Assembly: GCA_001821395.1 (NCBI GenBank) | Contig: MHLM01000015.1 | Coordinates: 2,293-66,292 of the forward strand | DNA: 64,000 nucleotides | Direction: 5' to 3' | Source of the DNA: Candidatus Lloydbacteria bacterium RIFCSPHIGHO2_02_FULL_50_18 | GTDB lineage: Bacteria > Patescibacteriota > Minisyncoccia > Phycocordibacterales > UBA6899 | In this document: positions 22,270 through 64,000 of the stretch, one piece after another | Layout of the letters: each line of letters begins with the position of its first letter | Position numbering within the stretch: position 1 is the first letter of the stretch | Program-made: the position numbers and the translations under genes | Notes under the pieces: model-generated | What the model saw: the letters and a program-made list of their open reading frames with translations, nothing else | Told to the model about the DNA's origin: nothing | The model's database searches: none

Positions 22270-22345
22270 TGGTGGACCATGGGAGAATCGAACTCCCCAC
22301 CTCTTCCATGCCATGGAAGCGCTCTACCAAATGAGCTAATGGCCC
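22270..22345 (-). tRNA. tRNA-Ala (anticodon GGC), G3:U70, CCA encoded
   Basis: Manual fold: acceptor GGGCCAT/ATGGTCC with G3:U70, anticodon stem CTTCC/GGAAG with loop ATGGCAT, T-arm GGGAG-TTCGATT-CTCCC, then ACCA. Confidence 0.85.
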
Positions 22346-22640
22346 GTAGAAAGATGATAACTTACAAATGGGTTTTCTTCAATGAAGACGGGGGGGGTCG
22401 AGTCGTGAAGGGAGTCGAAGCTTATTCGAGATCGTCATCGCAAGCTTTGTGGAGATGGCAAGTCGTGTAGTGCGTTGCCGGAGGGCAACACTGCTACGAA
22501 AAAGCCAACCGGGTGTCTGGCTTTGCGGACTTGGCTTACAGCTTCAGTACGCCTTTTCGATTTATTCAGAGCGAAGCTCTTCATAAATAACGAAAAGCCC
22601 TTCGACTCCCCGCCGCAAGTGAAGCAGTTCACTTGCTTGA

Positions 22641-22694
22641 GTCCACAGGTACAAAAAAATTACGATTTCTCGTAATTTTTTTGTACCTGTGGAC
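22641..22694 (-). terminator. Perfect 54-nt palindrome / intrinsic terminator overlapping the tRNA-Ala(CGC) 3' end
   Basis: GTCCACAGGTAC-AAAAAAA-TTACGA-ttct-TCGTAA-TTTTTTT-GTACCTGTGGAC. The 3' arm includes the first nucleotides of the tRNA 3' terminus. Confidence 0.6.
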
Positions 22695-22760
22695 TCACGG
22701 GGAGTCGAACCCCGGACTCGGCAATGCGAATGCCGTGTAATACCACTTTACTATGAGCCC
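22690..22760 (-). tRNA. tRNA-Ala (anticodon CGC), G3:U70, no CCA encoded
   Basis: Manual fold: acceptor GGGCTCA/TGAGTCC (G3:U70), anticodon stem CGGCA/TGCCG with loop TTCGCAT, T-arm CGGGG-TTCGACT-CCCCG, discriminator A. Confidence 0.8.
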
Positions 22761-22805
22761 AGTAGGCGAATAGTAGCGAATTTATCCGTGGGGTGCAAAT
22801 TGTTG

Positions 22806-22849
22806 GACCGTACAGGAATCTCGGCTACCGCCGCGGGTGATATTCAATT
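22806..22849. repeat. tRNA-Ala(TGC) 3'-end fragment (tggaccgtacagga) fused to the conserved 34-nt element; attR-like scar
   Basis: 14 nt identical to the acceptor/T-stem of tRNA-Ala(TGC) at 23197-23210. It is followed by aatctcggctaccgccgcgggtgatattcaat, identical to 2247-2280. Confidence 0.6.
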
Positions 22850-23141
22850 TCGTACAGGAATTTCGACGCCTACTGCGTCAGTACCCAGTTTCAATTTGAA
22901 TACAGGACTCTTCCTCTACGAGGACAGTATACCTTTCACCACAGAGAGTACTTCTTGTTTTCTAGCTCACTTCGTTCGTAAGTAAACAATGTCGTCCGTT
23001 TACTGAGGATAAGAATCCTGCCGTACAGGAATCTCTCCCCTTACAGGGGCAGTGTCCAGTTTCGATTTACTCAAAATAGGAATTTCTCGTAAATATCGAA
23101 ACAGGCTTCGAGTCCTTACGCAAGCAATGCAGATTGCTTGC

Positions 23142-23206
23142 TACGGTCCACACCATATAAGAAAAAACTGCCTTACGGCAGTTTTTACTTTATGGTGTGG
23201 ACCGTA
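23142..23206 (-). terminator. Extended hairpin / terminator overlapping the tRNA-Ala(TGC) 3' end
   Basis: ctacggtccacaccata-aagaaaaaa-CTGCC-ttac-GGCAG-ttttta-ctttatggtgtggaccgta: GC stem flanked by A/T tracts. The outer arms are an inverted copy of the tRNA acceptor 3' strand. Confidence 0.55.
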
Positions 23207-23270
23207 CAGGACTCGAACCTGCCACCCCCGCATTGCAAATGCGGTGCTCTACCAGATGAGCTAACGGCCC
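23198..23270 (-). tRNA. tRNA-Ala (anticodon TGC), G3:U70
   Basis: Manual fold: acceptor GGGCCGT/ACGGTCC (G3:U70), anticodon stem CCGCA/TGCGG with loop TTTGCAA, T-arm GCAGG-TTCGAGT-CCTGT. Confidence 0.85.
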
Positions 23271-48161: not shown

Positions 48162-51100
48162 TTAGAACCCGGATGAGGATTCGTGATCAATTTGTAATAC
48201 CGCCTTTTTACCGAAACGATAAAGCAAGGCTGGGGTAAGAAAGAGGGAGATGACCGTCGATGACAGCAGTCCCCCGAATACCACAACCGCAAGCGGATGG
48301 AGCATCTCTTTGCCCGGCTCATCGCCATAAAGGAGAAGTGGCACTAACGCGAGCGAAGTTACCAGCGAAGTCATCAATACTGGCGTCACACGATCAAGCG
48401 TCGCACGAATGATCGTTGCGGGCGTAAAAGGCTCTCCTTCGTTTCGCACAAGCGACAGCGTGCGACCGATGAGCATGATGCCATTACGCGAGACTATTCC
48501 TGCGAGCGAAATAAAGCCGACCAAATGCGCGAGATTAATCGTCCCCCCCGTGAACCAAATGCCCAACATTCCTCCGATCATCACCGTCGGGATATTTGCG
48601 AGCACCAAGAGTACAATCGCTGTTGAATGAAACGCGCGATAGAGGACTGCGACGATCATCACAAACCCAGCGAGAAAGACGAACGCAAGTCGTCGCGTGC
48701 TTTCTTTTTGGCTTTGATAGTTTCCCTCGAAGGAAAGCGTCACGCCGACGGGGAGTTCGCCGCTCTCAAGTGCAAATTTCACTGCCTCAACTTCACCGAC
48801 GAGATCACTTCCTTGATAATTTGCGGTCACCGCAAGTACGCGCTTTCCGTTTTCATGGTCGACGCTATTGCGACCTCCTTCAATGCGTACGTCGGCAACG
48901 CTTCCCAGTGATGCCGCCTCCATAAACGGCAGCGCAATATCCCGCAACGATGCCATTGCCCCTTTTGATTCAGCATCGTACCGCGCAACAACATTTACCG
49001 AAGCGGCACCGAGTCGCACTTGCCCGAGTGTGTCACCCATGAGGCCCATCTCGAGGTCACTTGCCACACCCCCCGCAGAAAGCCCGTATTCCGCGATGCG
49101 ATTATGGTCAACATATACTCGAAATTCGGGTACAACAGTATTTTGCTGGATGCGCGGGTTTGTGATCCCCTTTTGCTTTTTCATCTCAGCAAGTACCTGC
49201 TTTGCCGCCTGATCCATGCTCTCGGAAGTATCCCCAAATACTTTTACTACAATAGGCGCACGCACTCCCGAAAGGAGCATCTCGACACGATGTGTGATCG
49301 GTTGACCGAGACTGTAATCTGCTCCACCGAAGCGATCAAGTGTTTTCTGAATATCGCTGAACAGGCGCGGGCGTTCACTCTCGAAGTATCCTGGCTTAAA
49401 TACAATCTGAATCTCGCTTGCATTCGCACTTCCGCCATGAGGATCTGCGGGCGCACGTCCTGCAATATTTGACACCTGTCGAATTCCCGGAATTTGTAGT
49501 AATGCGGTTTCGAGTTTCGTCACATAAGCGTTCGTCGCAGAAAGTGCAGTTCCAGGAGGAAGAAAAAGCATTATCACTGCTGAACCCTCATTAAACGGCG
49601 GGATGCCCTCCTTTCCTGCGAAAGAGTAAAACCCCGTAGCGAGAACAAGAGCGATCACGACTCCACCAGAGAGGAATTTTACATTAGTGATACACCAACT
49701 GATCCAAGGGGTTATTCTTTCCTTGATCGCAATAACAACCCGCGTTTCTTTTTCATGCCCTTCGAGTGATTTGTCACTCAAAAGAAGTGCAGACAGAACT
49801 GGCGTTACAGTGAGTGAGACCGCCATCGAAGCGACCAGGGAGACTAGGTATGCAGCTCCTAATGAGGCAAGGAGCCGCCCTTCGATATCCGGCATAAAGA
49901 ATATCGGAAGAAAAACCACGGTCACAAGGAGTGTGGCATAGACGATGGAATTTCGTACCTCGCTTGAGGCGCTCTGCACAACTTCTTCTCGATATTCTTT
50001 CTTTCCTGTTTGTTTCCAGATACGCAGCCGTCGAAAGATATTTTCGACATCAACGATAGCGTCATCGACGAGTTCCCCGACGGCAACGGCGATACCGCCA
50101 AGCGTCATGACATTCACTGAAAGTCCAAATTGCTTGAAGACGATCACCGTCACGAGGATCGACAGCGGGATCGCCGTGAGCGTGATCATTGTCGTACGCA
50201 CATTCATCAGGAAAATAATGAGAACAATGATGACAAGGATCGTTCCATCACGAAGTGCTCCCGTGACATTTCCGAGTCCTGCACGAATGAAATTCTCCTG
50301 ACGAAAAAGATCGGGGTGAATTTCTACTCCCGGGGGCAGACTCGCAGCAAGCGAACGAAACGTTCCATCGATTGCATCGGTCACCGCAAGTGTTTGCGCA
50401 TCTGGCTGACGAATGACGCGTAAAATAACCCCCTGATCTCCATCAATTGCACTTGATCCACGAATTGGGCTTGGTGTCTCAAGCACTGTTGCAATATCTG
50501 CCAGACGAACAACACTTCCCCCTGAGGTCCTCCCAATCGCAAGCTCACCAAGTGTTTTTACTTCGGTTGGCGCAACAAGAATTCTAATTGGATACTCTTT
50601 GCCACCTTCAACGAGAATATTGCCGCTTTTGTTTGTTATTGCTCCTTCGACTTTCGTGCGCACGTCTTCGATCATGAATCCATAGCGTCGCATACGCTCC
50701 GCATTGAGATCGATCCGCCACTCTCTGACATCGCCCCCCATGACGAGCACGTTCGCAACGCCGGGAGTCTTCAGTATCGCGGGACGTATTGTCCAGTCTG
50801 CAAGCGTGCGGAGTTGCATGGGAGTGATACTCGGATCTTTTGCGGTGATGCCGACCCACATAATCTCACCCAACAGCGAGGTCGAGGGGCCGAGTATCGG
50901 TTTCACACCGCGCGGGAGTACCGCTTGCGAAAGACGCTCCTGGACGATCTGTCTATTGCGCAGTGAGTCTGAGCCCCAAGCGAATTCAATGTTCAGTGTC
51001 GCTTGCGCGAACGATGCATTCGAACGGATGCGATCGACCCCAGGTGCCCCAAGCATTGTAGCCTCAAGTGGATTTAAGACGAGAAGCTCGACCTCTTCCG

Positions 51101-51272
51101 CAGCGAGTCCTGGACTCTCTGCAAACACGGTAACAGTCGGCTTGTTAATGTCAGGAAGGATATCCACCTTCATTGTCGACAAGCTCCAAAGACCGAGGAC
51201 CGAGACGGCTCCGGCTAGGATAAGCACGAGGTATTTATTTTTGAGCGACCAAGAAATGATTTTATTTAACAT
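48162..51272 (-). CDS. HME-RND heavy-metal efflux pump (CzcA/CusA family)
   Basis: 1036 aa, 12-TM RND architecture. The N-terminus MLNKIISWSLKNKYLVLILAGAVSVLG matches the CusA/CzcA consensus. Confidence 0.85.
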   Translation of the reverse strand: MLNKIISWSLKNKYLVLILAGAVSVLGLWSLSTMKVDILPDINKPTVTVFAESPGLAAEEVELLVLNPLEATMLGAPGVDRIRSNASFAQATLNIEFAWGSDSLRNRQIVQERLSQAVLPRGVKPILGPSTSLLGEIMWVGITAKDPSITPMQLRTLADWTIRPAILKTPGVANVLVMGGDVREWRIDLNAERMRRYGFMIEDVRTKVEGAITNKSGNILVEGGKEYPIRILVAPTEVKTLGELAIGRTSGGSVVRLADIATVLETPSPIRGSSAIDGDQGVILRVIRQPDAQTLAVTDAIDGTFRSLAASLPPGVEIHPDLFRQENFIRAGLGNVTGALRDGTILVIIVLIIFLMNVRTTMITLTAIPLSILVTVIVFKQFGLSVNVMTLGGIAVAVGELVDDAIVDVENIFRRLRIWKQTGKKEYREEVVQSASSEVRNSIVYATLLVTVVFLPIFFMPDIEGRLLASLGAAYLVSLVASMAVSLTVTPVLSALLLSDKSLEGHEKETRVVIAIKERITPWISWCITNVKFLSGGVVIALVLATGFYSFAGKEGIPPFNEGSAVIMLFLPPGTALSATNAYVTKLETALLQIPGIRQVSNIAGRAPADPHGGSANASEIQIVFKPGYFESERPRLFSDIQKTLDRFGGADYSLGQPITHRVEMLLSGVRAPIVVKVFGDTSESMDQAAKQVLAEMKKQKGITNPRIQQNTVVPEFRVYVDHNRIAEYGLSAGGVASDLEMGLMGDTLGQVRLGAASVNVVARYDAESKGAMASLRDIALPFMEAASLGSVADVRIEGGRNSVDHENGKRVLAVTANYQGSDLVGEVEAVKFALESGELPVGVTLSFEGNYQSQKESTRRLAFVFLAGFVMIVAVLYRAFHSTAIVLLVLANIPTVMIGGMLGIWFTGGTINLAHLVGFISLAGIVSRNGIMLIGRTLSLVRNEGEPFTPATIIRATLDRVTPVLMTSLVTSLALVPLLLYGDEPGKEMLHPLAVVVFGGLLSSTVISLFLTPALLYRFGKKAVLQIDHESSSGF

Positions 51273-51370
51273 ATTATTTTGTTATTCATTACTACTCCTA
51301 GCGAAGAACGTATAGAAAATTCTGATTTTATACAACGTCCGAGCGACGGAGTGGATAGGAATTCTTATTC

Positions 51371-53140
51371 CTACATTCCCATAGCCCGCATCGCCGCATC
51401 ATACGATGACTCACCCTTTTGTCCGCTATCAGGTGCTTTGATATCATCGAGTAGCATGTCTTCGGCAATCCCCGGGACAGACTTTACGATATATTGTTCG
51501 CCACGTGAGAGTCCGCCATAGACCTCAATCTTGTCACCGAGCGTACGTCCGAGAGAAACTTTCTTCGCATAGAGACGTCCCCCTAAAGAGACCGCCCAGA
51601 CATTCGGGCTAGCGCCTGCATCCCACCAAATCGACGAAAGAGGGATCTCAAGTGTTTCAGTATCAACTCCAGTGACGACGCGAAGCGATACTCCGATAGG
51701 CCAATCGACAGGTTCGAGCAGGAGCGCATCGGCCATGATAGAGCCAGTATCATCGAGAGAATTCCCGACACCGATCAATTTTGCGCGTGGCATCATCTGC
51801 GGAAAACCGGAACGTGTGACATAAAACTCTTGTCCGATTTCCGGCTTACGTATATTGCTGGGGATGCGGAAGCGAACAATGTAGTCACTACTCTGCCCCC
51901 CCGTTACCACGGCGACAGGCATGCCGGGCCCGACAAATTCTCCTACCTTTCTCATAATCGACGAGACGGTACCGCCCTTTGGTGCGACGATCGCAGCATT
52001 ACCGAGCACGCCATTCTTTACCGTCTGATACGCGGCCTCTTTCGCGGCGAGATCGCCTTCAGCCATTGCGAGATCTTGTCGAAGCATTGCGATATCATTA
52101 TCGTTCATACGCACTTGCTCAAATGATGTTTTTTCAGTATCGACCGCCATTAACTCAGTCTCACGAAGCTTATCAGCCGCCATGATGAACGACTCCTGAT
52201 CTCTATGGAGCATCGCCTTCAGGTTCATAAGCTCAAGATCCGTGAGCATGCTGCCATCAGGTATTGATGCATCGGCGAGCTTGATCGTGAGTTCAAAATA
52301 CGCGAGCCCTGATACAAGCGGGAGTTTATCCGGTGTATCAATGTCGGACAGCGTGGCAAACAAGACTGATGGGAAAGCGTCACGCAAGCGGACGTTTTGC
52401 GCACCTATCGCGTCCTTGAGCGCGACAGCAGTCCATCGTGCGGGAAGCGTTCCGTTACCGGAGAGCATCGGATAAGTCGTAGCGAGCGTCCCACGCAACA
52501 TTGCGCGAAGCGTCTGTTTTTTTGCCTCGATCATCGAAAAATTCGACCCTCCCGACACTTGCAGCATCGACATGCTTCCACCAAGTAGTGCCCGTGAAGC
52601 ATCGAGCGAACGCAAGGTGTTCTCACGAAGTTCATCAATTTGCGCAATACGCACCTTTGCATAGACGCGCTTTGCGTCAACGCTGGCTCGCGCCATCGAA
52701 ACCATTTTTTGTTCATCCGCGAGCATCGCAATGGTATCAGGCATTGCGGGCGGGACAGAAAGCATGCCAAGCACCTCACCGGCAGCAACTCGCTGACCGA
52801 CGTGCACATTCCAAGAAGAGATCGTCCCTTCTCGTGCGGGCTGAATGGGTATACTTCCCAGCGAGATAAGCTCACCCGGCCATGAATTTTCAACTCCTGA
52901 TATGTCTGCGGAACTTGTTGCTCCGGCTACAGCAATTTCGATATCAGAGATCGGACTATTTCCGACTTCTTCGGTGGCAGGATCCGATGAGTTTTTGACG
53001 GATGCGCTGACCACAGCAAATCCGATCACCATAACGATAACTCCGAAGAGTATACCAAACAATATTTTTTTATCCGCAGTCACCCACTTTATAGATCGTT
53101 GTATGTTCTCTTGCATAAAGGATAGTAAATTGATTAACAA
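51371..53140 (-). CDS. RND efflux periplasmic adaptor (membrane fusion protein, CzcB/CusB-like)
   Basis: N-terminal TM anchor, long coiled-coil/lipoyl/beta-barrel layout. Directly upstream of the HME-RND pump. Confidence 0.7.
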   Translation of the reverse strand: MLINLLSFMQENIQRSIKWVTADKKILFGILFGVIVMVIGFAVVSASVKNSSDPATEEVGNSPISDIEIAVAGATSSADISGVENSWPGELISLGSIPIQPAREGTISSWNVHVGQRVAAGEVLGMLSVPPAMPDTIAMLADEQKMVSMARASVDAKRVYAKVRIAQIDELRENTLRSLDASRALLGGSMSMLQVSGGSNFSMIEAKKQTLRAMLRGTLATTYPMLSGNGTLPARWTAVALKDAIGAQNVRLRDAFPSVLFATLSDIDTPDKLPLVSGLAYFELTIKLADASIPDGSMLTDLELMNLKAMLHRDQESFIMAADKLRETELMAVDTEKTSFEQVRMNDNDIAMLRQDLAMAEGDLAAKEAAYQTVKNGVLGNAAIVAPKGGTVSSIMRKVGEFVGPGMPVAVVTGGQSSDYIVRFRIPSNIRKPEIGQEFYVTRSGFPQMMPRAKLIGVGNSLDDTGSIMADALLLEPVDWPIGVSLRVVTGVDTETLEIPLSSIWWDAGASPNVWAVSLGGRLYAKKVSLGRTLGDKIEVYGGLSRGEQYIVKSVPGIAEDMLLDDIKAPDSGQKGESSYDAAMRAMGM

Positions 53141-55020: not shown

Positions 55021-58000
55021 CTACGTAATGGCGTTTTCGTTACTTTTGTCATCTATGCCAAACCGATAGTAAAGGATCGGGAAAATGACCAACGTGAGGA
55101 CTGTCGAAAGCGAGAGTCCAAAAATGATCGCCCATGCGAGACCGCTCCATACGGGGTCGGTCACTATGACCACAGAACTCAGGATGGCCGTTATCGACGT
55201 CAACATGATCGGGCGAAGACGAGTCTTGCACGCTTCAACGATGGCATGCTTTGGACCCATACCGCGCGTGCGCAACTGCTCGATGAAGTCAAGCAAGAGT
55301 ATCGCGTTACCCACGACGATCCCACCCAGTGCAATAACGCCAATCATTGAGGTTGCGGAGAAATATGTTCCCGAAAGCGCGTCAAGGATCGCGAAGCCGG
55401 GCATGACTCCCGCAAAGCCGAGAATGATCGTGGTCATGATAAGTGCCGAAGAACGAAAACTGCGAAACTGTGCCACGAGAATGACATAGATCAGAAAATA
55501 CGATATCAGCATCGCCGTTCCAAGATCTCTAAAATTATCGAGGGTCATTTCGAACTCTCCGCCCCATTCGATCTTGTATATCTCATGAGTGATCTCGTCT
55601 TCAAAAGTGAGACCATAGAGGCTCCAACTCGTAAGGTGTCCGTGACCGCCAGGCAAGCGATAAGACCGAAGCGATGTGATCAGGTCTTTGACGACATAGA
55701 CCACGGACCTCCCTTCCACCTCACCAGTCACGAGGTCCATTTGTTCCTGCGCATCGTGCAAGATCGGGGTCGGACTGACGCCTACCCTTGTTTTCATGAC
55801 ACTCGAAAGCGGAACCATGACTCCGACATTGTTTTTCATTTCGATACGTGAAAGATCGGAAAGCTTTTCACGCGCGGACTTCTCGAACTGCACAACGATA
55901 GTTGTGTCTTCACGACTTTCGAGATGAGCGATCGCAATCGGACTACCAGTCGTCATGACCCGCAGCGTATTCACGACATCGGCAACAGAAAGACCCGATC
56001 GTGATAATTTTTCATGGTCGATATCCAATAATTCGCTGCTGCCTCCGGACGCTAGCGAGGAATTGATGTCGACAACGCCACGCGTCCCACGGAACAATGA
56101 CTGCATGTCACGGATGATCGCCCCGCGAACTTCCGGGTCTGCACCTTTCACTCGCGCAACCAGCGTTGAGAGCACTGGGGGGCCCGGTGGATCTTCAACG
56201 AGCTGCAAGCGTATTCCGGGTGTATCGGTGAATGCTGAAGTAAGCTTTACCCGCAATGACGTAACGATCTCTTCACTCATCATTGTGCGCGAAGTAACAG
56301 GAGTCAGATCGATCTTCATTGTCGCCTGAAACGGAAAGCTGCGCGCATCTGAACCGCGAAATAAACCGTTGAAATCGATGATGGGAGCGGCGCCCACAAA
56401 TGATTCAACTGAAACAACGTTCGGGTCTGTGAGCATGATCTGCGAGACTCGAGACGCGGCCGCATCAGTCGCGCCAAATGCCGTATTCTCCGGCATATCG
56501 AGGTACACATAAAATTGTTCCTTGTCCGCTTTTGGCAACATACGAAAATGCACGAATTGAAAGACGGGGAAGCTGAACGCGATGACTACCACAAGCGTTA
56601 CGCCGATCAATATCCGATCTTGAATCTTTTTGCTGTCCAAAATATGATGGATCAACGTCTTGTACCACAGCTCAAATTTGGAGTGTTTTTCCTCGTGCGC
56701 CCCTCGCTCGATACCGTCTCCTTCCACGTGCTCTTTAAGGAAAATAGATGCAATGAACGGAGAAAGCGTATATGCGACGATAAGCGACGCCAAGCGTGCA
56801 ACAGGTGCAAAAAATGCGATCGGCCCCATGTATGCACCCATCATCCCCGTCACCATGCCCATCGGAACAAAGACGACAACCGCAGTTATCGTAGAAAGGA
56901 ACACTCCCATACCCACCTCACCGGTCGCATGAGCAATGGCGTCGGTCCGGAGTTCTGTCTTCAATGAAAAATGACGGTGAATATTTTCGATAACCACGAT
57001 CGCATCATCGACAAGCAAACCCAAAGAAAATATGAGCGCAAAAAGGGTGATGCGGTTGATCGTCTCACCGGAAAAATATCCGGCAATGAACACCAGTGCG
57101 AGTGTCAGCGGGATCGCGGTTGCTACTACAAGTGCGGGACGCCATCCGAGAAAGAACACGAGTGTCAGCGTCACAATAAGTATCGCAAGCAAGAGATGTT
57201 CCGTGAGTTTCATGATCTCCTCTCCCGCGATCGCCCCTTCGTCGCAAGAGACGCGCACGTCGATGTTGTCGGGAATGAAATGCTGTTTCATTTCATCGAG
57301 ACGAGACCTTACGAGCGTGGCCACGTTGGTGATATTCGTCCCCTGTGCTTTTGCGAACGACAGATACACGACGTTGACGTCATTACTGATCGCATCAGGC
57401 GATTGTTTTTCAATAAGACTGATGTGATGGTCGATCACGTCATACCCGTCAATGATCGTTGCAACGTCTTCGAGATAGATCGGTGAGATGCTTCCCCCGC
57501 CGATCACGAGCTTCGAGAGCGTAGATCCGTCGATGATATTTCCGTCGATCTCGATGGGGATATTGAGTGCTGCTCCTTCGAGCGCTCCTACGTTTACGCG
57601 AAGATCATTCATCGAAATAGCTTGCGTTATGTCGCCAACGCTCATATGACGCGCCGCAAGACGGTCAGGGTTGAGCAAGACGGTCAGTTGACGCGAGTGT
57701 CCGCCGTTGATCTCGATATTCGTGATCCCCGATACCGTCTTTAATTGATCTTTGAGTTCGTATGCAAACTGACGTAGACCGTCAGGGCTGACCTCCGTGC
57801 TGGTGATCGCGAGCGTCATAATGGGAACATTCTCCGGATCGATCTGCTCGATCAGCGGCACACCGACTCCGATCTGTCCGGGGTCGATCGCGGACTGCAT
57901 CTTTTGGACGATCTCCGTCTTGCTCGTCTCAAGTTTTGTCCCGATCTTAAAGACTACCGTAACTACACTTTTTCCTCCTGAGAACGACTGCGAACTCAGC

Positions 58001-58260
58001 GTATCAACGCCAGGGATAGCGGCAATGCTATTCTCTATCTCGTTTGTAACAAGTCTTTCCACTTCACCTGAGGTGGCACCGGGATACATGGTCACGACAC
58101 GAAATGCCGGAAGCGTGATCTCGGGATTATATTGCTTTGGAGTAGCGATAAATGCGAACAGACCAAAAGCGAAGGTTGCTAATATGAGGATCAGCGACAA
58201 ATGGCGATTCATCACGAAAAAGCGCGAAATGTGCGAATAGATATTCTCTTTAGTTTTCAT
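55021..58260 (-). CDS. RND efflux transporter permease (AcrB-like)
   Basis: 1079 aa, 12-TM with two large periplasmic loops. Confidence 0.85.
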   Translation of the reverse strand: MKTKENIYSHISRFFVMNRHLSLILILATFAFGLFAFIATPKQYNPEITLPAFRVVTMYPGATSGEVERLVTNEIENSIAAIPGVDTLSSQSFSGGKSVVTVVFKIGTKLETSKTEIVQKMQSAIDPGQIGVGVPLIEQIDPENVPIMTLAITSTEVSPDGLRQFAYELKDQLKTVSGITNIEINGGHSRQLTVLLNPDRLAARHMSVGDITQAISMNDLRVNVGALEGAALNIPIEIDGNIIDGSTLSKLVIGGGSISPIYLEDVATIIDGYDVIDHHISLIEKQSPDAISNDVNVVYLSFAKAQGTNITNVATLVRSRLDEMKQHFIPDNIDVRVSCDEGAIAGEEIMKLTEHLLLAILIVTLTLVFFLGWRPALVVATAIPLTLALVFIAGYFSGETINRITLFALIFSLGLLVDDAIVVIENIHRHFSLKTELRTDAIAHATGEVGMGVFLSTITAVVVFVPMGMVTGMMGAYMGPIAFFAPVARLASLIVAYTLSPFIASIFLKEHVEGDGIERGAHEEKHSKFELWYKTLIHHILDSKKIQDRILIGVTLVVVIAFSFPVFQFVHFRMLPKADKEQFYVYLDMPENTAFGATDAAASRVSQIMLTDPNVVSVESFVGAAPIIDFNGLFRGSDARSFPFQATMKIDLTPVTSRTMMSEEIVTSLRVKLTSAFTDTPGIRLQLVEDPPGPPVLSTLVARVKGADPEVRGAIIRDMQSLFRGTRGVVDINSSLASGGSSELLDIDHEKLSRSGLSVADVVNTLRVMTTGSPIAIAHLESREDTTIVVQFEKSAREKLSDLSRIEMKNNVGVMVPLSSVMKTRVGVSPTPILHDAQEQMDLVTGEVEGRSVVYVVKDLITSLRSYRLPGGHGHLTSWSLYGLTFEDEITHEIYKIEWGGEFEMTLDNFRDLGTAMLISYFLIYVILVAQFRSFRSSALIMTTIILGFAGVMPGFAILDALSGTYFSATSMIGVIALGGIVVGNAILLLDFIEQLRTRGMGPKHAIVEACKTRLRPIMLTSITAILSSVVIVTDPVWSGLAWAIIFGLSLSTVLTLVIFPILYYRFGIDDKSNENAIT

Positions 58261-59860
58261 AGACAGTATTGCCGGAAATTGTGGTCACCACATCATCATC
58301 ACGTAAATAGCGATGCCCTGCCGTGGCAACGATGTCGCCGGATGTCAGTCCGCTTATGATCTCGATGAGCTCAGTCGACTCTGCGCCGACGGTGACCATA
58401 CGACGATGTACAACCTTACCGTCAAAGACAAATACATATACGGAACCGTACTCCAACAGAAGCGCACTGCGCGGAATCGCGACGGAGGCGCTGTGTGCTT
58501 TTTCAAATGCCACATGTGCATACGATCCGACCTTCAATGCGTGATCGCCATTTGCGATCGATAATTCCATCGTTACTTTTTTGCTCACGGGGTCAGCGCT
58601 AGGATCGATCCTGGTGATCACTGCGACAAATGTTCGCTCGGAAAGAAGATCGCTCACGATCGTTGCCGTATCTCCGACATGATAAAGCGACACACGGTCA
58701 TCCGGCACACCGATCGAGAGCTTAAGGACTGAGTCGTCGACGAGATGAAAAAGTGGCGTTCCGGGAGCAATGACCGCACCTTGTTCGACATACTTTTTTG
58801 TGATGAGTCCCCCAAATGATGCATGAATGACGCCATCCGCAAGAATGGTATCGGTCACATCCGTTTGCCCCTTTAATGCGACGATCTGCGACTGTGCTTC
58901 TGCGAGTTTTGTGTCGCGTATCCTTTCGAGCAGTATGACACTCGTCGATACATCATGGATGTTCTGCAACAGTGACTGCACTTGCCCACCGAGCATCGTG
59001 ACGTTTGTTTTGTATGAGCTGATCTCAGCACCGCTTGCGCTTGAGGCCGCGACACTTCCCGATAATACGGCGTAAGCTTGGCTCAGAACAACTTTTGAAT
59101 TCGTGAGCACCGCCACTGCTTCCGTAAGCCCCAAATCGACGGCCGACTGACTCGGATCTTTGTTCAGAATGGATCCGTGAAAATAATTTTGAAATTTATC
59201 ATTTGCAAGTTGGTATGCCATGAGTGTTTCGCGCGCAGTCATTTTTGCCGCTGTATTTCTCACACCAAGCTCATTATCAAATGTTATTTCGATACTGCTG
59301 TCTTTTCCGTTCTGCACAGAGAGAAGAGTACCGAGAATGTCACTCACCTGATCAGAAAGTATCGCGGCGTTCGTAAGCGCTGCAACGCTAGCAGTCTGCG
59401 ACGACCCCGTATCAGTTGCGCTCGGGATCGGACCACCCGACGTTTGCTCTGTACGGATCTGCTCTTTGTAATAGCGATCGATCGCAGAGACACCCTTTTC
59501 GGCGACGGCGATGCTATTGTTCAGGCCATCTCTTGTTGCCCGAGCCGTTGTTCCGTCGAGTTCAGCAAGTGTTTGAGCGGAAAAAACACGCGCTCCAACA
59601 TCAGCATATAACGCAACGATGCTACCGCCCGTCTTTGCCGCCAGATCTACCTCACGCTCCGGCTGCAGTATTCCGGTAAAACGCTCCGCATCCGAAACAT
59701 CCGCATTTACCGCGGCGGCGGTAGTGATGACCGGAATCTGCTGCACAGGAAGAACCTGCGCATTGATACGCATTATAACGAGCACAACAAATAGGAGTAG
59801 CGCCGTAATACTCACTACAGTAAAACTATGGGGGCGAATTTTTTGTATGATGGATCGCAT
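58250..59860 (-). CDS. RND efflux periplasmic adaptor (HlyD-like)
   Basis: N-terminal TM anchor, long alpha-hairpin region, C-terminal beta-barrel. Overlaps the pump start by 11 nt. Confidence 0.65.
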   Translation of the reverse strand: MRSIIQKIRPHSFTVVSITALLLFVVLVIMRINAQVLPVQQIPVITTAAAVNADVSDAERFTGILQPEREVDLAAKTGGSIVALYADVGARVFSAQTLAELDGTTARATRDGLNNSIAVAEKGVSAIDRYYKEQIRTEQTSGGPIPSATDTGSSQTASVAALTNAAILSDQVSDILGTLLSVQNGKDSSIEITFDNELGVRNTAAKMTARETLMAYQLANDKFQNYFHGSILNKDPSQSAVDLGLTEAVAVLTNSKVVLSQAYAVLSGSVAASSASGAEISSYKTNVTMLGGQVQSLLQNIHDVSTSVILLERIRDTKLAEAQSQIVALKGQTDVTDTILADGVIHASFGGLITKKYVEQGAVIAPGTPLFHLVDDSVLKLSIGVPDDRVSLYHVGDTATIVSDLLSERTFVAVITRIDPSADPVSKKVTMELSIANGDHALKVGSYAHVAFEKAHSASVAIPRSALLLEYGSVYVFVFDGKVVHRRMVTVGAESTELIEIISGLTSGDIVATAGHRYLRDDDVVTTISGNTVYEN

Positions 59861-59866
59861 AGCTTT

Positions 59867-60091
59867 TTATTTTGTGGGAACTCCAAGCTTTTGAAGCAAT
59901 ATCGCCGACGGACAGTATCCGGTCATTGCAAAAATGATCTGCATGCATCCGATAAGTGCAGTAACGGCGAGCCACCAAAGTTCCCGGAAATATACCGCGA
60001 GGCCGACCGAAACAAGCACGAATAATCCGGCAAGAAGATAAACAACGCGGGTGACATACCAATGTGATGTCTCAAGACGAAATATATTCAT
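59867..60091 (-). CDS. DUF2892 (YgaP-like) small inner-membrane protein
   Basis: 74 aa, two TM helices with TGYCPSAILLQKLGV, which is DUF2892-like. Confidence 0.55.
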   Translation of the reverse strand: MNIFRLETSHWYVTRVVYLLAGLFVLVSVGLAVYFRELWWLAVTALIGCMQIIFAMTGYCPSAILLQKLGVPTK

Positions 60092-60190: not shown

Positions 60191-61093
60191 TTAGCCCCTC
60201 TTGAGATACACCTTTACAAAACTGCTTTTCATTTCTGCCGCTTTTGCTGAAAGAGCTTCTGTGTCATTTGTTTTGGAGAGATCTAAGAGCTGCTCTAAAT
60301 TTTGTCGAATTGTTTGGATCTCGGTATCATTTGCAACCTCTTCTACAGCCTTGAGCCTGTCGCTTACAAGAGGATATGTCGCGATGACAAGTTCCGGATC
60401 TTTTGCATCTGCTGCTGCAATGATCGTCTCCATCGCATCATGAAAATCAACAAGGGATACCGCAAGCATCGAGAAGGCATTGCGCTTCAATATGTTCTGA
60501 AATACCGGACGGACCTGTTCAAGGTCAAGGTGTGCTGATTTAAGATCACCAGATAATATCTTATCCCTGGGCATGGCGATCATCGTGGCGATCCGATCAA
60601 GGTCTTCGTTGAATTGTGCATCATGCGAAACAACATAGGGATGATAACCTTGATACTTGGAACGAAAGTCCGCATATGCCGATTGTAGCTCAGTATAGTT
60701 TTTTACTGATTGTTCTCGATCTATCTGCCCGGTGTAAAACAATGCTTGTTTATAGGATTGATTCATTGCAGTGTAATCATCGAGGAAGATCTTCTTTGTA
60801 AAAAAGTTGCTCGCATAGCCACCTCCGATCACGATAAGCAACGACACAAAAAATAGAATACCAATTCCTGTTTTTGATAAAAGTTTTTCATGCGACGAAC
60901 AGGTGCTGATCCCAAATATTTTATACAATCCGCAATATCCGACGATCGCCGTCACCAGCATAATCAAACCAATAAGATAAAATGCGATCTGTAAAATACC
61001 TCCAAGCCAAAAAAAGCCAAGCAAAAATAATATCTCGGACAATATTAGCCGTGTCCCTCTATCCGCTATCCCTTCATTTTTTACAATATTCAT
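60191..61093 (-). CDS. Membrane protein with a DUF2892-like N-terminus and a ~200 aa soluble domain
   Basis: N-terminal two-TM module with GYCGLYKIFGISTC, then a helical soluble domain. Directly downstream of the first CsoR/CstR gene. Confidence 0.5.
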   Translation of the reverse strand: MNIVKNEGIADRGTRLILSEILFLLGFFWLGGILQIAFYLIGLIMLVTAIVGYCGLYKIFGISTCSSHEKLLSKTGIGILFFVSLLIVIGGGYASNFFTKKIFLDDYTAMNQSYKQALFYTGQIDREQSVKNYTELQSAYADFRSKYQGYHPYVVSHDAQFNEDLDRIATMIAMPRDKILSGDLKSAHLDLEQVRPVFQNILKRNAFSMLAVSLVDFHDAMETIIAAADAKDPELVIATYPLVSDRLKAVEEVANDTEIQTIRQNLEQLLDLSKTNDTEALSAKAAEMKSSFVKVYLKRG

Positions 61094-61120: not shown

Positions 61121-61411
61121 TCAGATCGAAAACGCAGACGCGACGACCGTGCGTATATCCTTCTCAAATTTCAGTGAAACGCCTTCACCTTTTGCGCACG
61201 TGATCGCATAGGCATCTATATACGCTTCGGCGAACCGTTTTACGGCAACATGCACCGCTTTGATCTGTCCGATATTTACGAGGCAATCGCCCTGCTTATC
61301 GGACTCGACCGAACGCTTGATGCCTTCGATCTGCCCTTGGATACGATTGAGGCGATGAAGCAACGCTTCTCGCTCATCTGCGGTCTTATTTAATTCTTGT
61401 GAATTTTTCAT
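61121..61411 (-). CDS. CsoR/RcnR-family (DUF156) metalloregulator, CstR-like
   Basis: LLHRLNRIQGQIEGIKRSVE helix. Conserved Cys in DCLVNIG and ITCAKGEG. The CsoR His position is Tyr, giving a Cys...Cys arrangement. Confidence 0.85.
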   Translation of the reverse strand: MKNSQELNKTADEREALLHRLNRIQGQIEGIKRSVESDKQGDCLVNIGQIKAVHVAVKRFAEAYIDAYAITCAKGEGVSLKFEKDIRTVVASAFSI

Positions 61412-61418
61412 GCATACA

Positions 61419-61442
61419 CTATATACCCCATGGGGTATATAG
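61419..61442. promoter_or_regulatory. Perfect 24-nt palindrome CTATATACCCCATGGGGTATATAG; putative CsoR/CstR operator
   Basis: ATACC-N-GGTAT-type inverted repeat with a central G/C tract, 8 nt upstream of the regulator start codon. Confidence 0.65.
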
Positions 61443-61573
61443 TCAACAGCGCGATAAGTTCTTTTCGGTATCGGGTTCTTCTATTCGTATCGCAACGCTT
61501 CCATAGGCAAGGGATCATTTAATTTCCGTTTCCTATTAACACCATCAGGCACCCATCTGTACAGAGGGGCACC

Positions 61574-61975
61574 CTATGGGGCTTTCTGTGCGGCGCTCAT
61601 TTCTTGCAATTTTTTCACGAAAGGGATATCGGCGGGAGCAAAGTCAAAATTGTTCAAATCAGCGATATCGAGCAGCATGATCGCATCATGAACGGTCAGC
61701 TTGAAATCACCCGAGACATGCTCGGTATGATACGCACGGAGATGAATGGCCTTCTCACCGTATGCATGGATATTTTCCGCAAACAATTCGCCAACGCGGG
61801 CCGTGATCGCGAATTCTTCGAGCAGCTCCCTTTTCAGACACTCCTCCGGCGTCTCCCCCGCCTCGATCTTCCCGCCCGGAAACTCCCACATACCCGAAAA
61901 CGCCTGACCAGAACCCCTGCGGGCAATGAGCACCATTCCGTCCTTCATGATCACTGCTGCGCTGACCTCGATCAT
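61574..61975 (-). CDS. NUDIX hydrolase (MutT-like)
   Basis: GGKIEAGETPEECLKRELLEEFAI Nudix box. Confidence 0.8.
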   Translation of the reverse strand: MIEVSAAVIMKDGMVLIARRGSGQAFSGMWEFPGGKIEAGETPEECLKRELLEEFAITARVGELFAENIHAYGEKAIHLRAYHTEHVSGDFKLTVHDAIMLLDIADLNNFDFAPADIPFVKKLQEMSAAQKAP

Positions 61976-62304
61976 ACCGGGGTCATAACGATCTTCTCAC
62001 CTTCCGAGATCCAAGCCATGATGCCGCCTTCCAAGTCACAGACATTTTTGAATCCGCTCATTTCCATGAATGGTACGACCATCATCGTCCGCCCGCCCGA
62101 AGCGCAGTAGAAACAATAGGTCTTCTCCTTGGGGAGTGCCGTGGCCTTAGTCATGAATCCTCTATCTGAGAGATCCATCCATACCGAATTCGGGATGCGC
62201 CCTTCCGCAACTTCCGCCTCGGTACGCACGTCAACAATGACGAGGTTCGATTCGTTGGCGATACGTTCTTTGAGTTTTGCTACGTTTATTGAAGTCATGT
62301 GCAT
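61972..62304 (-). CDS. Rhodanese-like sulfurtransferase
   Basis: Single rhodanese domain with active-site Cys in CFYCASGGRT. Confidence 0.8.
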   Translation of the reverse strand: MHMTSINVAKLKERIANESNLVIVDVRTEAEVAEGRIPNSVWMDLSDRGFMTKATALPKEKTYCFYCASGGRTMMVVPFMEMSGFKNVCDLEGGIMAWISEGEKIVMTPV

Positions 62305-62541
62305 TTATGCAAGAAGGCGGTCAAACTCATTCGGCTGAAAGCCGACGATGATTTGTCCGTCGATCTCTACGACGGGAACACCCATCTGCCCGCTCTTCGA
62401 GATCATTTCCGACGCTTTCGCCCTGTCGGCACCCACGTCAAAATTGGCATAAGTCACGCCCTTTTTATCGAGATAATCCTTTGCCAACACACAGTAATGG
62501 CATGTTGAGGTCGAATATACGGTGACATTGTGATTGCTCAT
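62305..62541 (-). CDS. Glutaredoxin-like (NrdH/Grx) small redox protein
   Basis: VTVYSTSTCHYCVLAKDYL... CxxC in a thioredoxin fold, plus GVPVVEIDG. Confidence 0.75.
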   Translation of the reverse strand: MSNHNVTVYSTSTCHYCVLAKDYLDKKGVTYANFDVGADRAKASEMISKSGQMGVPVVEIDGQIIVGFQPNEFDRLLA

Positions 62542-62563
62542 AGTGATGTTATTTAGTGAATGA

Positions 62564-62854
62564 TTACATGAGATACGCCGACGCAATAATAGTGCGAATG
62601 TTGTTCTCAAATTTTGTTGAAACGCCCTCCTTCCGTGCACAACTGAGCGCATACGTTTCTACATATGCTTCAGCAAAATGCTTTACTGCGGAATGCACTG
62701 CTTTCACCTGTCCGAGGTTTGTAAGACAATTATCCTGCTTACTCGTTTCGATAGAACGTTTAATACCTTCGATTTGCCCTTGAATACGATTAAGACGATG
62801 AAGCAATGCCTCCCGCGCCAGATCGCGCGGTGTTACTTCGGCGGTTTTTTTCAT
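62564..62854 (-). CDS. CsoR/RcnR-family (DUF156) regulator paralog, CstR-like
   Basis: LLHRLNRIQGQIEGIKRSIE...DNCLTNLG...LSCARKEG; ~75% identical to the paralog at 61121-61411. Heads a grx-rhodanese-NUDIX operon. Confidence 0.85.
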   Translation of the reverse strand: MKKTAEVTPRDLAREALLHRLNRIQGQIEGIKRSIETSKQDNCLTNLGQVKAVHSAVKHFAEAYVETYALSCARKEGVSTKFENNIRTIIASAYLM

Positions 62855-62864
62855 GCCGTGATTA

Positions 62865-62883
62865 TATACCCTGTGGGGTATAA
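62865..62883. promoter_or_regulatory. Imperfect palindrome TATACCCTGTGGGGTATA; putative operator of the second CsoR/CstR paralog
   Basis: Same half-sites as the 61419-61442 operator, ~10 nt upstream of the start codon. Confidence 0.6.
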
Positions 62884-63066
62884 AGGTCAATAGGTAACAC
62901 ACCTTCTGATCCGCATTAAAAATTACCCCATGATTCATCATGGAGTATCATAGGATAATTTTATTTATGATTTGAGGATAAAAACTTGATTGATACTACC
63001 CTCCCCGCTATCAACATCCGCATGATACACGTGCGATACGAGTTGGAATTATCGTATCAGCAATAG

Positions 63067-63312
63067 CTACTGAAGATCCTTTTTCTTTTCCTCAAACTCC
63101 TTTTTATCGATCTCCCCCTTGGCATAGCGCTCTTTTAAGATATCAAGCGGAGATTTTTCATGTGCGCCATTATCATGACCATGTCCGCATCCATGACCAC
63201 CCCCAAGGCCCGCCCTTACGAAAGAGACGATCGCCCAGATGACGAGGCCCCAAAAGAGCAGCATGAAGAACGAACCAAAGCCGCCCATATAACCATATCC
63301 ATAATCCATCAT
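63067..63312 (-). CDS. SHOCT-domain membrane protein with Gly/His-rich segment
   Basis: TM helix, GGGHGCGHGHDNGAHE, and a C-terminal SHOCT motif LDILKERYAKGEIDKKEFEEKKKDL. Confidence 0.65.
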   Translation of the reverse strand: MMDYGYGYMGGFGSFFMLLFWGLVIWAIVSFVRAGLGGGHGCGHGHDNGAHEKSPLDILKERYAKGEIDKKEFEEKKKDLQ

Positions 63313-63358: not shown

Positions 63359-63682
63359 TTAAAACGTGACCACCTTATCCGACGTCTCGATCATTGCAAG
63401 CAGGTCAGCCATCGTGGAGATGGGACATACTGCATTTTCCTCGTGGTGACGCATCTTGATGCACGTGCCGCACACAAGCAGTTCCCCTTTCAGTGCCTTG
63501 AACTCCGCTACTTTTACCGAGATGTCGAAATTTGTTGTATCAATGATCGTGTCGAGTTCCGACCCCTCGCTCAGTAAAAAAACTGAGGCCTGATTTCCCG
63601 CCTTCAGCGCGGTGATTCCGAGGCGAAACGCATTCCACACGTGTTCGGGGTTGTTCGACTGCAAGATGATGCCGAGTTTCAT
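63359..63682 (-). CDS. DsrE/DsrF-like sulfur-relay family protein
   Basis: MKLGIILQSNNPE...LVCGTCIKM; DsrE-fold size with conserved Cys motifs. Confidence 0.7.
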   Translation of the reverse strand: MKLGIILQSNNPEHVWNAFRLGITALKAGNQASVFLLSEGSELDTIIDTTNFDISVKVAEFKALKGELLVCGTCIKMRHHEENAVCPISTMADLLAMIETSDKVVTF

Positions 63683-64000
63683 GCGTGCATTATATTATGA
63701 AACAACCACTCTGTACAAAAAAATAATCTTCATGAATATGGTTCTATTTTGAATCGTGGTGCCTGACCTCATTTTCATCCAAGGTTCCACCTTGGATGAG
63801 GTTGGCGATGAGACCTTATCGACACTTCATACAAGACCACACGAAACTGAGATCGAATGTATTTATCTCTGTTTTCATCAGACCACATATTTTCCATAAT
63901 GGAGGGGTCTGCTTTTATTCAACCTTGAATTGCAACAGTAACTCCTATTGGCGCGAGCCGAAAAACGAACATACCCGTCGGGATATACTGGTGGTGTTAT

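Follow-up and report, generated by a model that had tools for sequence, protein, structure and literature searches.

The window analysed here, 64,000 nt of the metagenome-assembled genome of an uncultured groundwater bacterium, a Candidatus Lloydbacteria member of the Candidate Phyla Radiation (CPR), carries two paralogous genes of the CsoR family, reg1 (61121..61411, minus strand) and reg2 (62564..62854, minus strand), whose products are putative repressors. Our preferred explanation, to which we give a probability of roughly 60% by analogy with CstR, is that reg1 and reg2 each repress their own operon as thiol-based sensors of sulfane sulfur, a reading supported mainly by the comparative context found in their relatives. 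We class the system as a new addition, at the level of a clade, to the CsoR-family dithiol (CstR-type) sensors and not as a system of a new kind. If our explanation is right, it extends CsoR-family persulfide sensing to the CPR and the Leptospirales via a clade without any characterised representative.

Two dithiol regulators and one type of operator

Each gene encodes a protein of 96 amino acids that exceeds the gathering score of PF02583 (22.8 bits), with 49.6 bits for reg1 and 52.4 bits for reg2, and the two proteins align without gaps at 65% identity, which bears out an earlier reading of the bare sequence (the original prediction) that had placed two paralogous CsoR-family genes here. The AF2 model of reg1 (pLDDT 90) comprises three helices at residues 4-36, 43-75 and 80-95, with Cys43 at the start and Tyr68 and Cys72 at the end of helix alpha2, and its top eight Foldseek matches are all CsoR-family proteins (FrmR, InrS, SlCsoR, TtCsoR and SpCstR). 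Public gene calls begin reg2 at 62941 to give a protein of 125 amino acids that reads through the operator described below (translated as IPHRVYNH), and we favour the start at 62854 because of the alignment with the paralog and the position of the promoter. The homolog P0003 shows the same over-extended start (LDYIPTGVYD), and at two related loci (L090 and L094) the annotated ATG falls within the operator.

Characterised members of the family have been told apart by a W-X-Y-Z fingerprint, which reads x-C-H-C in Cu-sensing CsoR, H-C-H-H or H-C-H-C in the Ni/Co sensors RcnR and InrS, P-C-H-x in FrmR and x-C-x-C in CstR, and a Tyr directly before the N-terminal Cys is a second-shell residue conserved across all Cu-sensing clusters (PMC8643695). 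Pairwise and clade-profile alignments to solved CsoR, InrS, FrmR and CstR proteins, a check that the original prediction had itself proposed, place Cys43 at X, Tyr68 at Y and Cys72 at Z in both paralogs and confirm that the two Cys are kept while a Tyr occupies the place of the Cu-ligand His. At the column of Tyr68, GtCsoR, SlCsoR and InrS have their metal-ligand His, and the CstR of Streptococcus pneumoniae has Asn55. Cys43 is preceded by Asp42 in reg1 and by Asn42 in reg2 and not by the Tyr of Cu sensors, and neither an N-terminal His nor Pro2 was found in the two proteins, whose N-termini read MKNSQ and MKKTA. Neither regulator gene adjoins copA or copZ. The resulting motif x-C-Y-C therefore excludes the fingerprints for Cu, Ni/Co and formaldehyde and fits the two-Cys, His-free x-C-x-C of CstR.

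Upstream of each regulator lies an operator of the common form TATACCC-N4-GGGTATA with identical half-sites. OP1 (61419-61442) is a perfect 24-nt palindrome, CTATATACCCCATGGGGTATATAG, and OP2 (62865-62883) is an imperfect copy of it, TATACCCTGTGGGGTATAA, that reads TATACCC-TGTG-GGGTATA, so the palindromes of the original prediction are both real. Within the 64 kb, the pattern ATACCCN4GGGTAT is matched exactly by these two sites and no other, where 0.05 would be expected, and the looser pattern TACCC-N2-8-GGGTA returns the same two sites against 0.06 expected. Operators of the CsoR/RcnR type have been defined as pseudo-palindromes with a G/C tract that overlap the promoter (PMC10318464), and OP1 and OP2 correspond to this definition by sequence in that their G/C-tract palindromes each fill the spacer between the -35 and -10 hexamers of a sigma-70-type promoter that ranks among the region's three best matches. 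These promoters are P1 (TTGACT-17-TATAGT, 61418..61446, minus strand) and P2 (TTGACC-18-TATAAT, 11/12, 62861..62890, minus strand), and a repressor bound to the operator would therefore occlude both hexamers. A TTGAC...ATACCC-N4-6-GGGTATA...ATG layout recurs upstream of homologous regulators at other loci of the CPR and of Leptospiraceae. OP1 (ATATACCCCATGGGGTATAT) closely resembles the cst operator of Streptococcus mitis, ATATACCCTTATGGGGTATAT, which is bound by CstR in vitro, and the half-sites match. The Cu-CsoR operators of Firmicutes are similar to the cst type as well, so a cst-like operator discriminates weakly and does not identify the inducer.

At reg1, reg2 and the gene of a DsrE-like protein further upstream, the -10 hexamer ends 6 nt before the ATG (61411-61446, 62854-62890 and 63682-63717, respectively), and no Shine-Dalgarno sequence is visible upstream of these three start codons. 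This geometry of promoter and ATG, which is also found in front of homologous regulators at CPR and Leptospiraceae loci, suggests that all three genes are transcribed as leaderless mRNAs.

The two regulator loci are in register at a distance of 1443 nt and share 72% nucleotide identity over 242 nt, upstream DNA included. Synonymous sites between reg1 and reg2 are near saturation (pS 0.62), from which we conclude that the duplication is old. Residues 14-34 with the RLNRIQGQ motif are nevertheless identical in the paralogs, with 0 non-synonymous and 11 synonymous changes, and the differences cluster at the sensing loop (GDC versus DNC) and at the end of alpha2 (DAYAITC versus ETYALSC). Because the DNA-reading helix and the operator half-sites are the same, cross-binding is to be expected, and it is plausible that either paralog could bind both operators. 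Differing thresholds or signals are possible in turn because the differences are grouped around the sensing residues.

The clade and its gene neighbourhoods

A word-indexed search with reg1 alone returned only reg1 itself and its paralog, and an exhaustive profile search returned 227 relatives. With a profile of the nearest relatives, about 100 clusters score at least 82 bits before a gap down to 68 bits, and we treat those above the gap as a clade. Its members come from the CPR (Lloyd-, Pace-, Parcu-, Sacchari- and Peregrinibacteria), the Leptospirales and the Marinamargulisbacteria. Scanning metagenomes with an alignment of close relatives gave CsoRs of gut Clostridia apart from L101 and L102, the two hits that truly belong to the clade, and a genome scan had a similar outcome with only seven useful loci (L007-L013). 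On the clade profile, the scores of characterised proteins are 55 bits for InrS, 50 for GtCsoR, 48 for SlCsoR, 42 each for SpCstR and FrmR and 36 for MtCsoR. Judged by these scores, the clade is roughly equidistant from all characterised classes and is not a subgroup of solved CstR.

Among 99 clade members, the Y position is occupied by His in 52, by Tyr in about 34, by Asn in six, by Phe in one and by Ser, Gln or Lys in a few. On this alignment, His and Tyr are interchangeable at Y within the clade. The Tyr-Cys dipeptide, with the Tyr before the first Cys, occurs in none of the 99, and at the sequence level its absence is a better discriminator than the residue at Y.

Gene context was sampled at 15 related loci out of the whole clade. 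At seven of them, genes for a rhodanese and for a protein of the metallo-beta-lactamase (MBL) fold with ~222 or 297 amino acids come directly after the regulator. The residue at Y is Tyr or Phe at five of these loci (L087, L089, L090, L099 and L101), His at the CPR locus L094 and Asn at L012, where the rhodanese is fused to a DUF2892 domain. The MBL-fold protein of L099 retrieves persulfide dioxygenases (PDOs) from the PDB (4ysb at 1.5e-43, the PDO-rhodanese fusion BpPRF, and human ETHE1 at 6.5e-36) and by these matches is an ETHE1-type PDO, and the MBL-fold proteins of the other loci are assigned by Pfam or NCBIfam matches only. Neither copA, copZ nor a dedicated metal exporter was found next to the regulator at any of the 15 loci, and there is none beside the window regulators.

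These data change how the fingerprint should be used. The original prediction had taken the C-x-C arrangement, with Tyr for His, as characteristic of CstR, but in this clade a Tyr at Y is not diagnostic since members with His at Y have the same rhodanese and MBL-fold neighbours. For the same reason, a His at Y, which it had named as grounds for giving up the idea, is not decisive, with His in 52 of 99 members and sulfur-related neighbours at the His-type locus L094. Within this clade, Cu sensors and sulfur sensors are not told apart by the W-X-Y-Z fingerprint alone, and better guidance comes from the gene context and from the residue that precedes the first Cys.

Other relatives share further parts of the local gene content. 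A glutaredoxin (Grx) gene follows the regulator at L098, where the regulator is an ortholog of reg2 from another metagenome, and at the Saccharibacteria locus L010. Saccharibacteria loci have genes for a DUF2202 protein, the regulator and a Grx in that order. At a Leptospira locus, the regulator is followed first by a 75-aa DUF2892 protein and then by an outer-membrane factor and an RND permease. This DUF2892 protein matches the 74-aa DUF2892 protein encoded downstream of reg1 at 6e-14, and the regulator-linked Leptospira permease matches the RND permease at 55021..58260 of the window at about 1e-147 (1.3e-148 and 6e-147), compared with 3e-41 for a second RND permease of the window.

The same effectors also occur behind regulators of another family. 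A 300-aa DUF2892 protein encoded directly downstream of reg1 belongs to a strongly conserved CPR family with 796 matches, of which the top 120 align over the full length at 53-67% identity. On a Paceibacterota contig, genes for an ArsR-type regulator, a Grx, a rhodanese and the 300-aa DUF2892 protein stand in this order, and on a Falkowbacteria contig the order is ArsR-type regulator, 300-aa DUF2892 protein, small DUF2892 protein and thioredoxin. The best solved relatives of the Paceibacterota ArsR-type protein in the PDB are HlyU, SqrR, YgaV and BigR, alongside CzrA. HlyU, SqrR, YgaV and BigR form the sulfide/persulfide-responsive branch of the ArsR family. From the gene orders, it looks as if Lloydbacteria have exchanged an ArsR-type regulator of these genes for a CsoR-type one, which, if true, would be a clear example of regulator displacement. 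The ArsR-type regulators that head the Grx, rhodanese and DUF2892 genes in these two CPR genomes (L181, 5736-5999, and L182, 5074-5340) are short, with 87-88 amino acids, and contain several Cys. They lack the C-terminal Cys of SqrR and BigR and, if sulfur-sensing, must therefore use another Cys pair.

Genes around the regulators

According to the list of open reading frames, the minus strand carries every gene across 55-64 kb, in the transcription order DsrE-like, SHOCT, reg2, Grx-like, rhodanese, NUDIX, reg1, 300-aa DUF2892, 74-aa DUF2892, RND periplasmic adaptor (MFP) and RND permease. All coordinates in this paragraph and the next two refer to this strand. Presumed operon 2 consists of reg2 and three further genes, the first of which encodes a Grx-like protein of 78 amino acids (62305..62541) with a CHYC motif that matches PF00462 and belongs to the YruB family (TIGR02196, 93.9 bits against a cut-off of 88.55). 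It is followed by a single-domain rhodanese of about 108-110 amino acids (61972..62304, PF00581) with the active-site loop CASGGR that matches the rhodaneses of the related loci. The presumed operon ends with a NudG/MutT-like NUDIX hydrolase of 133 amino acids (61574..61975, PF00293 and PF14815), which scores 114 bits for NudG and 95.5 bits for MutT on NCBIfam, each under its cut-off. A clear intrinsic terminator was not found between the NUDIX gene and P1, where the hairpin present lacks a U-tract, so transcription may run on from operon 2 into operon 1.

Presumed operon 1 comprises reg1, the two DUF2892 genes and a pump. The 300-aa membrane protein (60191..61093) combines a YgaP-like transmembrane (DUF2892) hairpin with a third transmembrane helix and a helical-bundle domain whose HxxxE motifs are conserved, and the 74-aa DUF2892 protein (59867..60091; a weak match to PF11127) has a GYCP motif. 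The MFP of 536 amino acids (58250..59860; HlyD_D23 and HlyD_3) scores 157 bits for TIGR01730, above the cut-off, and gives weak matches of the CzcB/CusB type. The RND permease of 1079 amino acids (55021..58260) at the presumed end of the operon scores 471 bits for RND_permease_2 on NCBIfam against 279 bits for CusA/CzcA and is thus nearer the multidrug type, and a heavy-metal reading of this pump was rejected because of these scores. A second pair of adaptor and RND permease, distantly related to the first, lies a few kb downstream at 48162-53140.

Upstream of reg2, genes for a DsrE-like protein of 107 amino acids (63359..63682, PF02635) and a SHOCT-domain membrane protein of 81 amino acids (63067..63312, PF09851) have their own promoter (TGTACA-17-TATAAT, 63689-63717) and their own terminator-like hairpin 3' of the SHOCT gene (62924-62947, from a terminator scan and folding) and no operator nearby. 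By this arrangement of signals, the two genes are a unit separate from both operons. In the SHOCT protein, an N-terminal membrane helix is accompanied by a Gly/His/Cys-rich loop, GGGHGCGHGHDNGAHE, that resembles a metal-binding segment.

Apart from the pump (59860-55021), which went unmentioned, these neighbours are as the original prediction had listed them, and its description of sulfur-transfer operons suits operon 2, whereas operon 1 consists mainly of DUF2892 and MFP-RND efflux genes. Its larger idea of a reactive-sulfur regulon under CstR-type repressors survives as the explanation best supported by comparative context, minus the DsrE-like and SHOCT genes, which lie outside the operators.

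At the edge of the window, 63770-64000 is the end of an IS30-like element that continues in L003 (1-1330) with a 332-aa HTH_38 transposase on the opposite strand between long imperfect inverted repeats, and this contig breaks at the element in most of its assemblies. A third operator-like site at 63970-63987, with one mismatch to the 16-nt core and two to the 18-nt pattern, lies within this end and was rejected as an operator and read as a structure of the insertion sequence. In L003, a near-complementary copy of the site overlaps the start codon of the transposase, and the pairing of the two suggests a 5'-UTR hairpin that would hide this start codon. Elsewhere, the window carries three tandem tRNA-Ala genes with the anticodons GGC, CGC and UGC (22270-23270, minus strand) and a tRNA-Pro(CGG) gene at 2523-2596.

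Signal, mechanism and comparison with known systems

In the mechanism that we propose, each paralog would bind the palindrome ATATACCC-N4-GGGTATA in the spacer of its own promoter, which would block RNA polymerase and leave the operon self-repressed. By analogy with CstR, sulfane sulfur, as persulfides or polysulfides, would attack Cys43, and the adduct would be resolved by Cys72 of the adjacent protomer to give di-, tri- or tetrasulfide cross-links, upon which the tetramer would leave the DNA and both operons would be expressed. The rhodanese and the thiol-disulfide oxidoreductase could then remove sulfane sulfur, and the DUF2892/RND module might export a sulfur-related or thiol-reactive compound. 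In this scheme, the cross-link chemistry and the tetramer are inferred, as are the identity of the inducer, the limits of the operons, the leaderless transcripts, the binding of each paralog to both operators and the substrate of the pump. The candidate sulfur-handling genes at the locus itself are those for the rhodanese, the Grx-like protein, the DUF2892 proteins and, nearby, the DsrE-like protein.

Several points weigh against a persulfide sensor. By profile score, the clade is no nearer to SpCstR (cluster 10, 42 bits) than to InrS or the Cu-CsoRs, the solved CstR has Asn and not Tyr at Y, and with His at Y in half of the clade the chemistry of relatives would allow a Cys2His metal site. 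Small proteins rich in His, Cys and Met are encoded nearby, namely the one with the SHOCT loop in the window and two more beside the homologous regulator of the Saccharibacteria locus L010, and several Leptospirales clade members are orphans without informative neighbours. No PDO was found in the 64-kb window, and SQR, CoA-persulfide reductase and TauE were not identified among the window genes examined. The MutT/NudG-like NUDIX hydrolase, the Grx-like protein and the RND pump would also suit a general response to oxidants or electrophiles, and CstR-family proteins react with several oxidants in vitro.

This last set of observations feeds an alternative in which the paralogs would be general thiol-oxidant or electrophile sensors, responding to disulfide stress, peroxide, hypochlorite, quinones or aldehydes, with a regulon for redox repair and efflux. 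Besides the nature of the three effectors (NudG/MutT-like, YruB-like and nearer the multidrug type) and the missing PDO in the window, it can draw on the two-Cys CsoR-family protein TTHA1953, whose binding to DNA is lost in vitro upon exposure to H2O2 or Cu(II) (PMC10318464), and on the in vitro reactions of SpCstR with H2O2, GSSG and tetrathionate. We nonetheless find it rather unlikely in view of the rhodanese within operon 2, the pairing of rhodanese and PDO-type MBL-fold genes beside the regulator at seven of 15 related loci, which points to persulfide, the identity of DUF2892 as the membrane domain of the rhodanese YgaP, and the placement of the same effectors behind HlyU/SqrR/YgaV-like ArsR regulators in two other CPR genomes. 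A sensor of Cu(I) or another thiophilic metal, in which the two Cys and perhaps a third ligand would bind the metal and the MFP-RND pump would export it, is the default function of the superfamily and could account for the His at Y in half of the clade, the weak CzcB/CusB-type matches of the MFP, the Gly/His/Cys-rich SHOCT loop and the His/Cys/Met-rich proteins of L010. It seems highly improbable to us, given Tyr and not His at Y in the window proteins, no Tyr-Cys dipeptide of the Cu clusters in any clade member, no N-terminal His for Ni/Co, no CopA or CopZ beside the regulator at 15 loci and an RND permease that scores higher as a multidrug than as a CusA/CzcA pump, and even the His-type CPR relatives still adjoin rhodanese and MBL-fold genes.

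A division of labour between the paralogs, with shared operators, different signals or thresholds and possibly mixed tetramers that would form an OR-type or graded circuit, is compatible with persulfide sensing and not opposed to it. The age of the duplication, the conservation of residues 14-34 at the protein level, the grouping of differences at the sensing loop and the end of alpha2 and the reg2 ortholog followed by Grx in another metagenome all speak for such a split, and the identical X, Y and Z residues of both paralogs speak against it; we put it forward tentatively. We are more doubtful still about a specific elaboration of persulfide sensing in which the DUF2892 proteins and the RND pump would form a reactive-sulfur-responsive efflux system under a CsoR-type dithiol sensor, as a module common to a CPR bacterium and Leptospira, with the duplicated sensors co-regulating it with the rhodanese/Grx operon, possibly as mixed tetramers. 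Should this speculative idea be true, what the RND pump exports would be sulfane sulfur, a persulfide of low molecular weight or a toxin that contains sulfur. In any case, both DUF2892 families gain a testable context, since a candidate sulfur sensor is linked here to DUF2892 proteins together with an RND pump.

Among known systems, the window regulators compare most directly with CstR of Staphylococcus aureus, Enterococcus faecalis and S. pneumoniae/S. mitis (clusters 4 and 10 in the sequence similarity network of PF02583, in which the actinomycete cluster 3 likewise counts as a CstR cluster; PMC8643695), with which they share the superfamily and the three-helix fold, Cys at X and Z, a residue other than His at Y, Asp or Asn before the first Cys, a rhodanese in the operon and an almost identical operator half-site (ATATACCC in the window and GGGTATAT for CstR). 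Unlike CstR, the window proteins have Tyr instead of Asn at the wedge position and a 2-residue insertion before Cys43, are only about 23-24% identical to it in a structure-based alignment and give it a profile score below those of InrS and the Cu-CsoRs. Known CstR-type regulons include rhodanese, DsrE, TusA, PDO, TauE and thioredoxin genes (PMC9918477, PMC8643695), whereas the window has no PDO, SQR, CoA-persulfide reductase or TauE among the genes examined, its targets include DUF2892 proteins and an RND pump, and two paralogs serve one operator type. The CstR-like YrkD of Bacillus licheniformis (PMC9918477) is likewise a two-Cys repressor of the CsoR family, itself autoregulated, at the head of a cluster with rhodanese, DsrE-like and thioredoxin-type genes. 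It is, however, 50% identical to S. aureus CstR, acts as a single regulator on two promoters where the window has two repressors with one promoter each, and belongs to a cluster with SQR, PDO and TauE; the DsrE-like gene of the window lies outside the operators.

An equivalent module under a different protein fold is provided by E. coli YgaV-YgaP and the BigR, SqrR and HlyU systems, in which ArsR-type regulators with a winged helix instead of the CsoR helical bundle control a rhodanese and DUF2892 (fused in YgaP) and often a thiol oxidoreductase. E. coli ygaVP, with its ArsR-type regulator and rhodanese-DUF2892 protein, is the classical analogue. The two-Cys CsoR-family protein TTHA1953 of Thermus thermophilus (PMC10318464) controls sulfur metabolism (Sox genes) via Cys reactivity and is not released by metal, and it differs from the window regulators in an operator without a G/C tract (TACNNTACNNNNGTANNGTA, compared with the CCCC/GGGG core of the window) and in targets that are distant instead of adjoining. 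Cu(I)-sensing CsoR of Mycobacterium tuberculosis, Bacillus subtilis, Streptomyces lividans and Geobacillus thermodenitrificans has the family, the fold, Cys at X and Z, the GC-tract palindrome over the -35/-10 region and autoregulation (predicted for the window) in common with reg1 and reg2, which differ from it in that Y is not His, the first Cys does not follow a Tyr, and neither copA nor copZ adjoins them. The best-studied pair of the family, CsoR and CstR of S. aureus, is known for the absence of cross-talk, and the window offers an example from nature in which paralogous repressors, two in number, go with a single type of operator.

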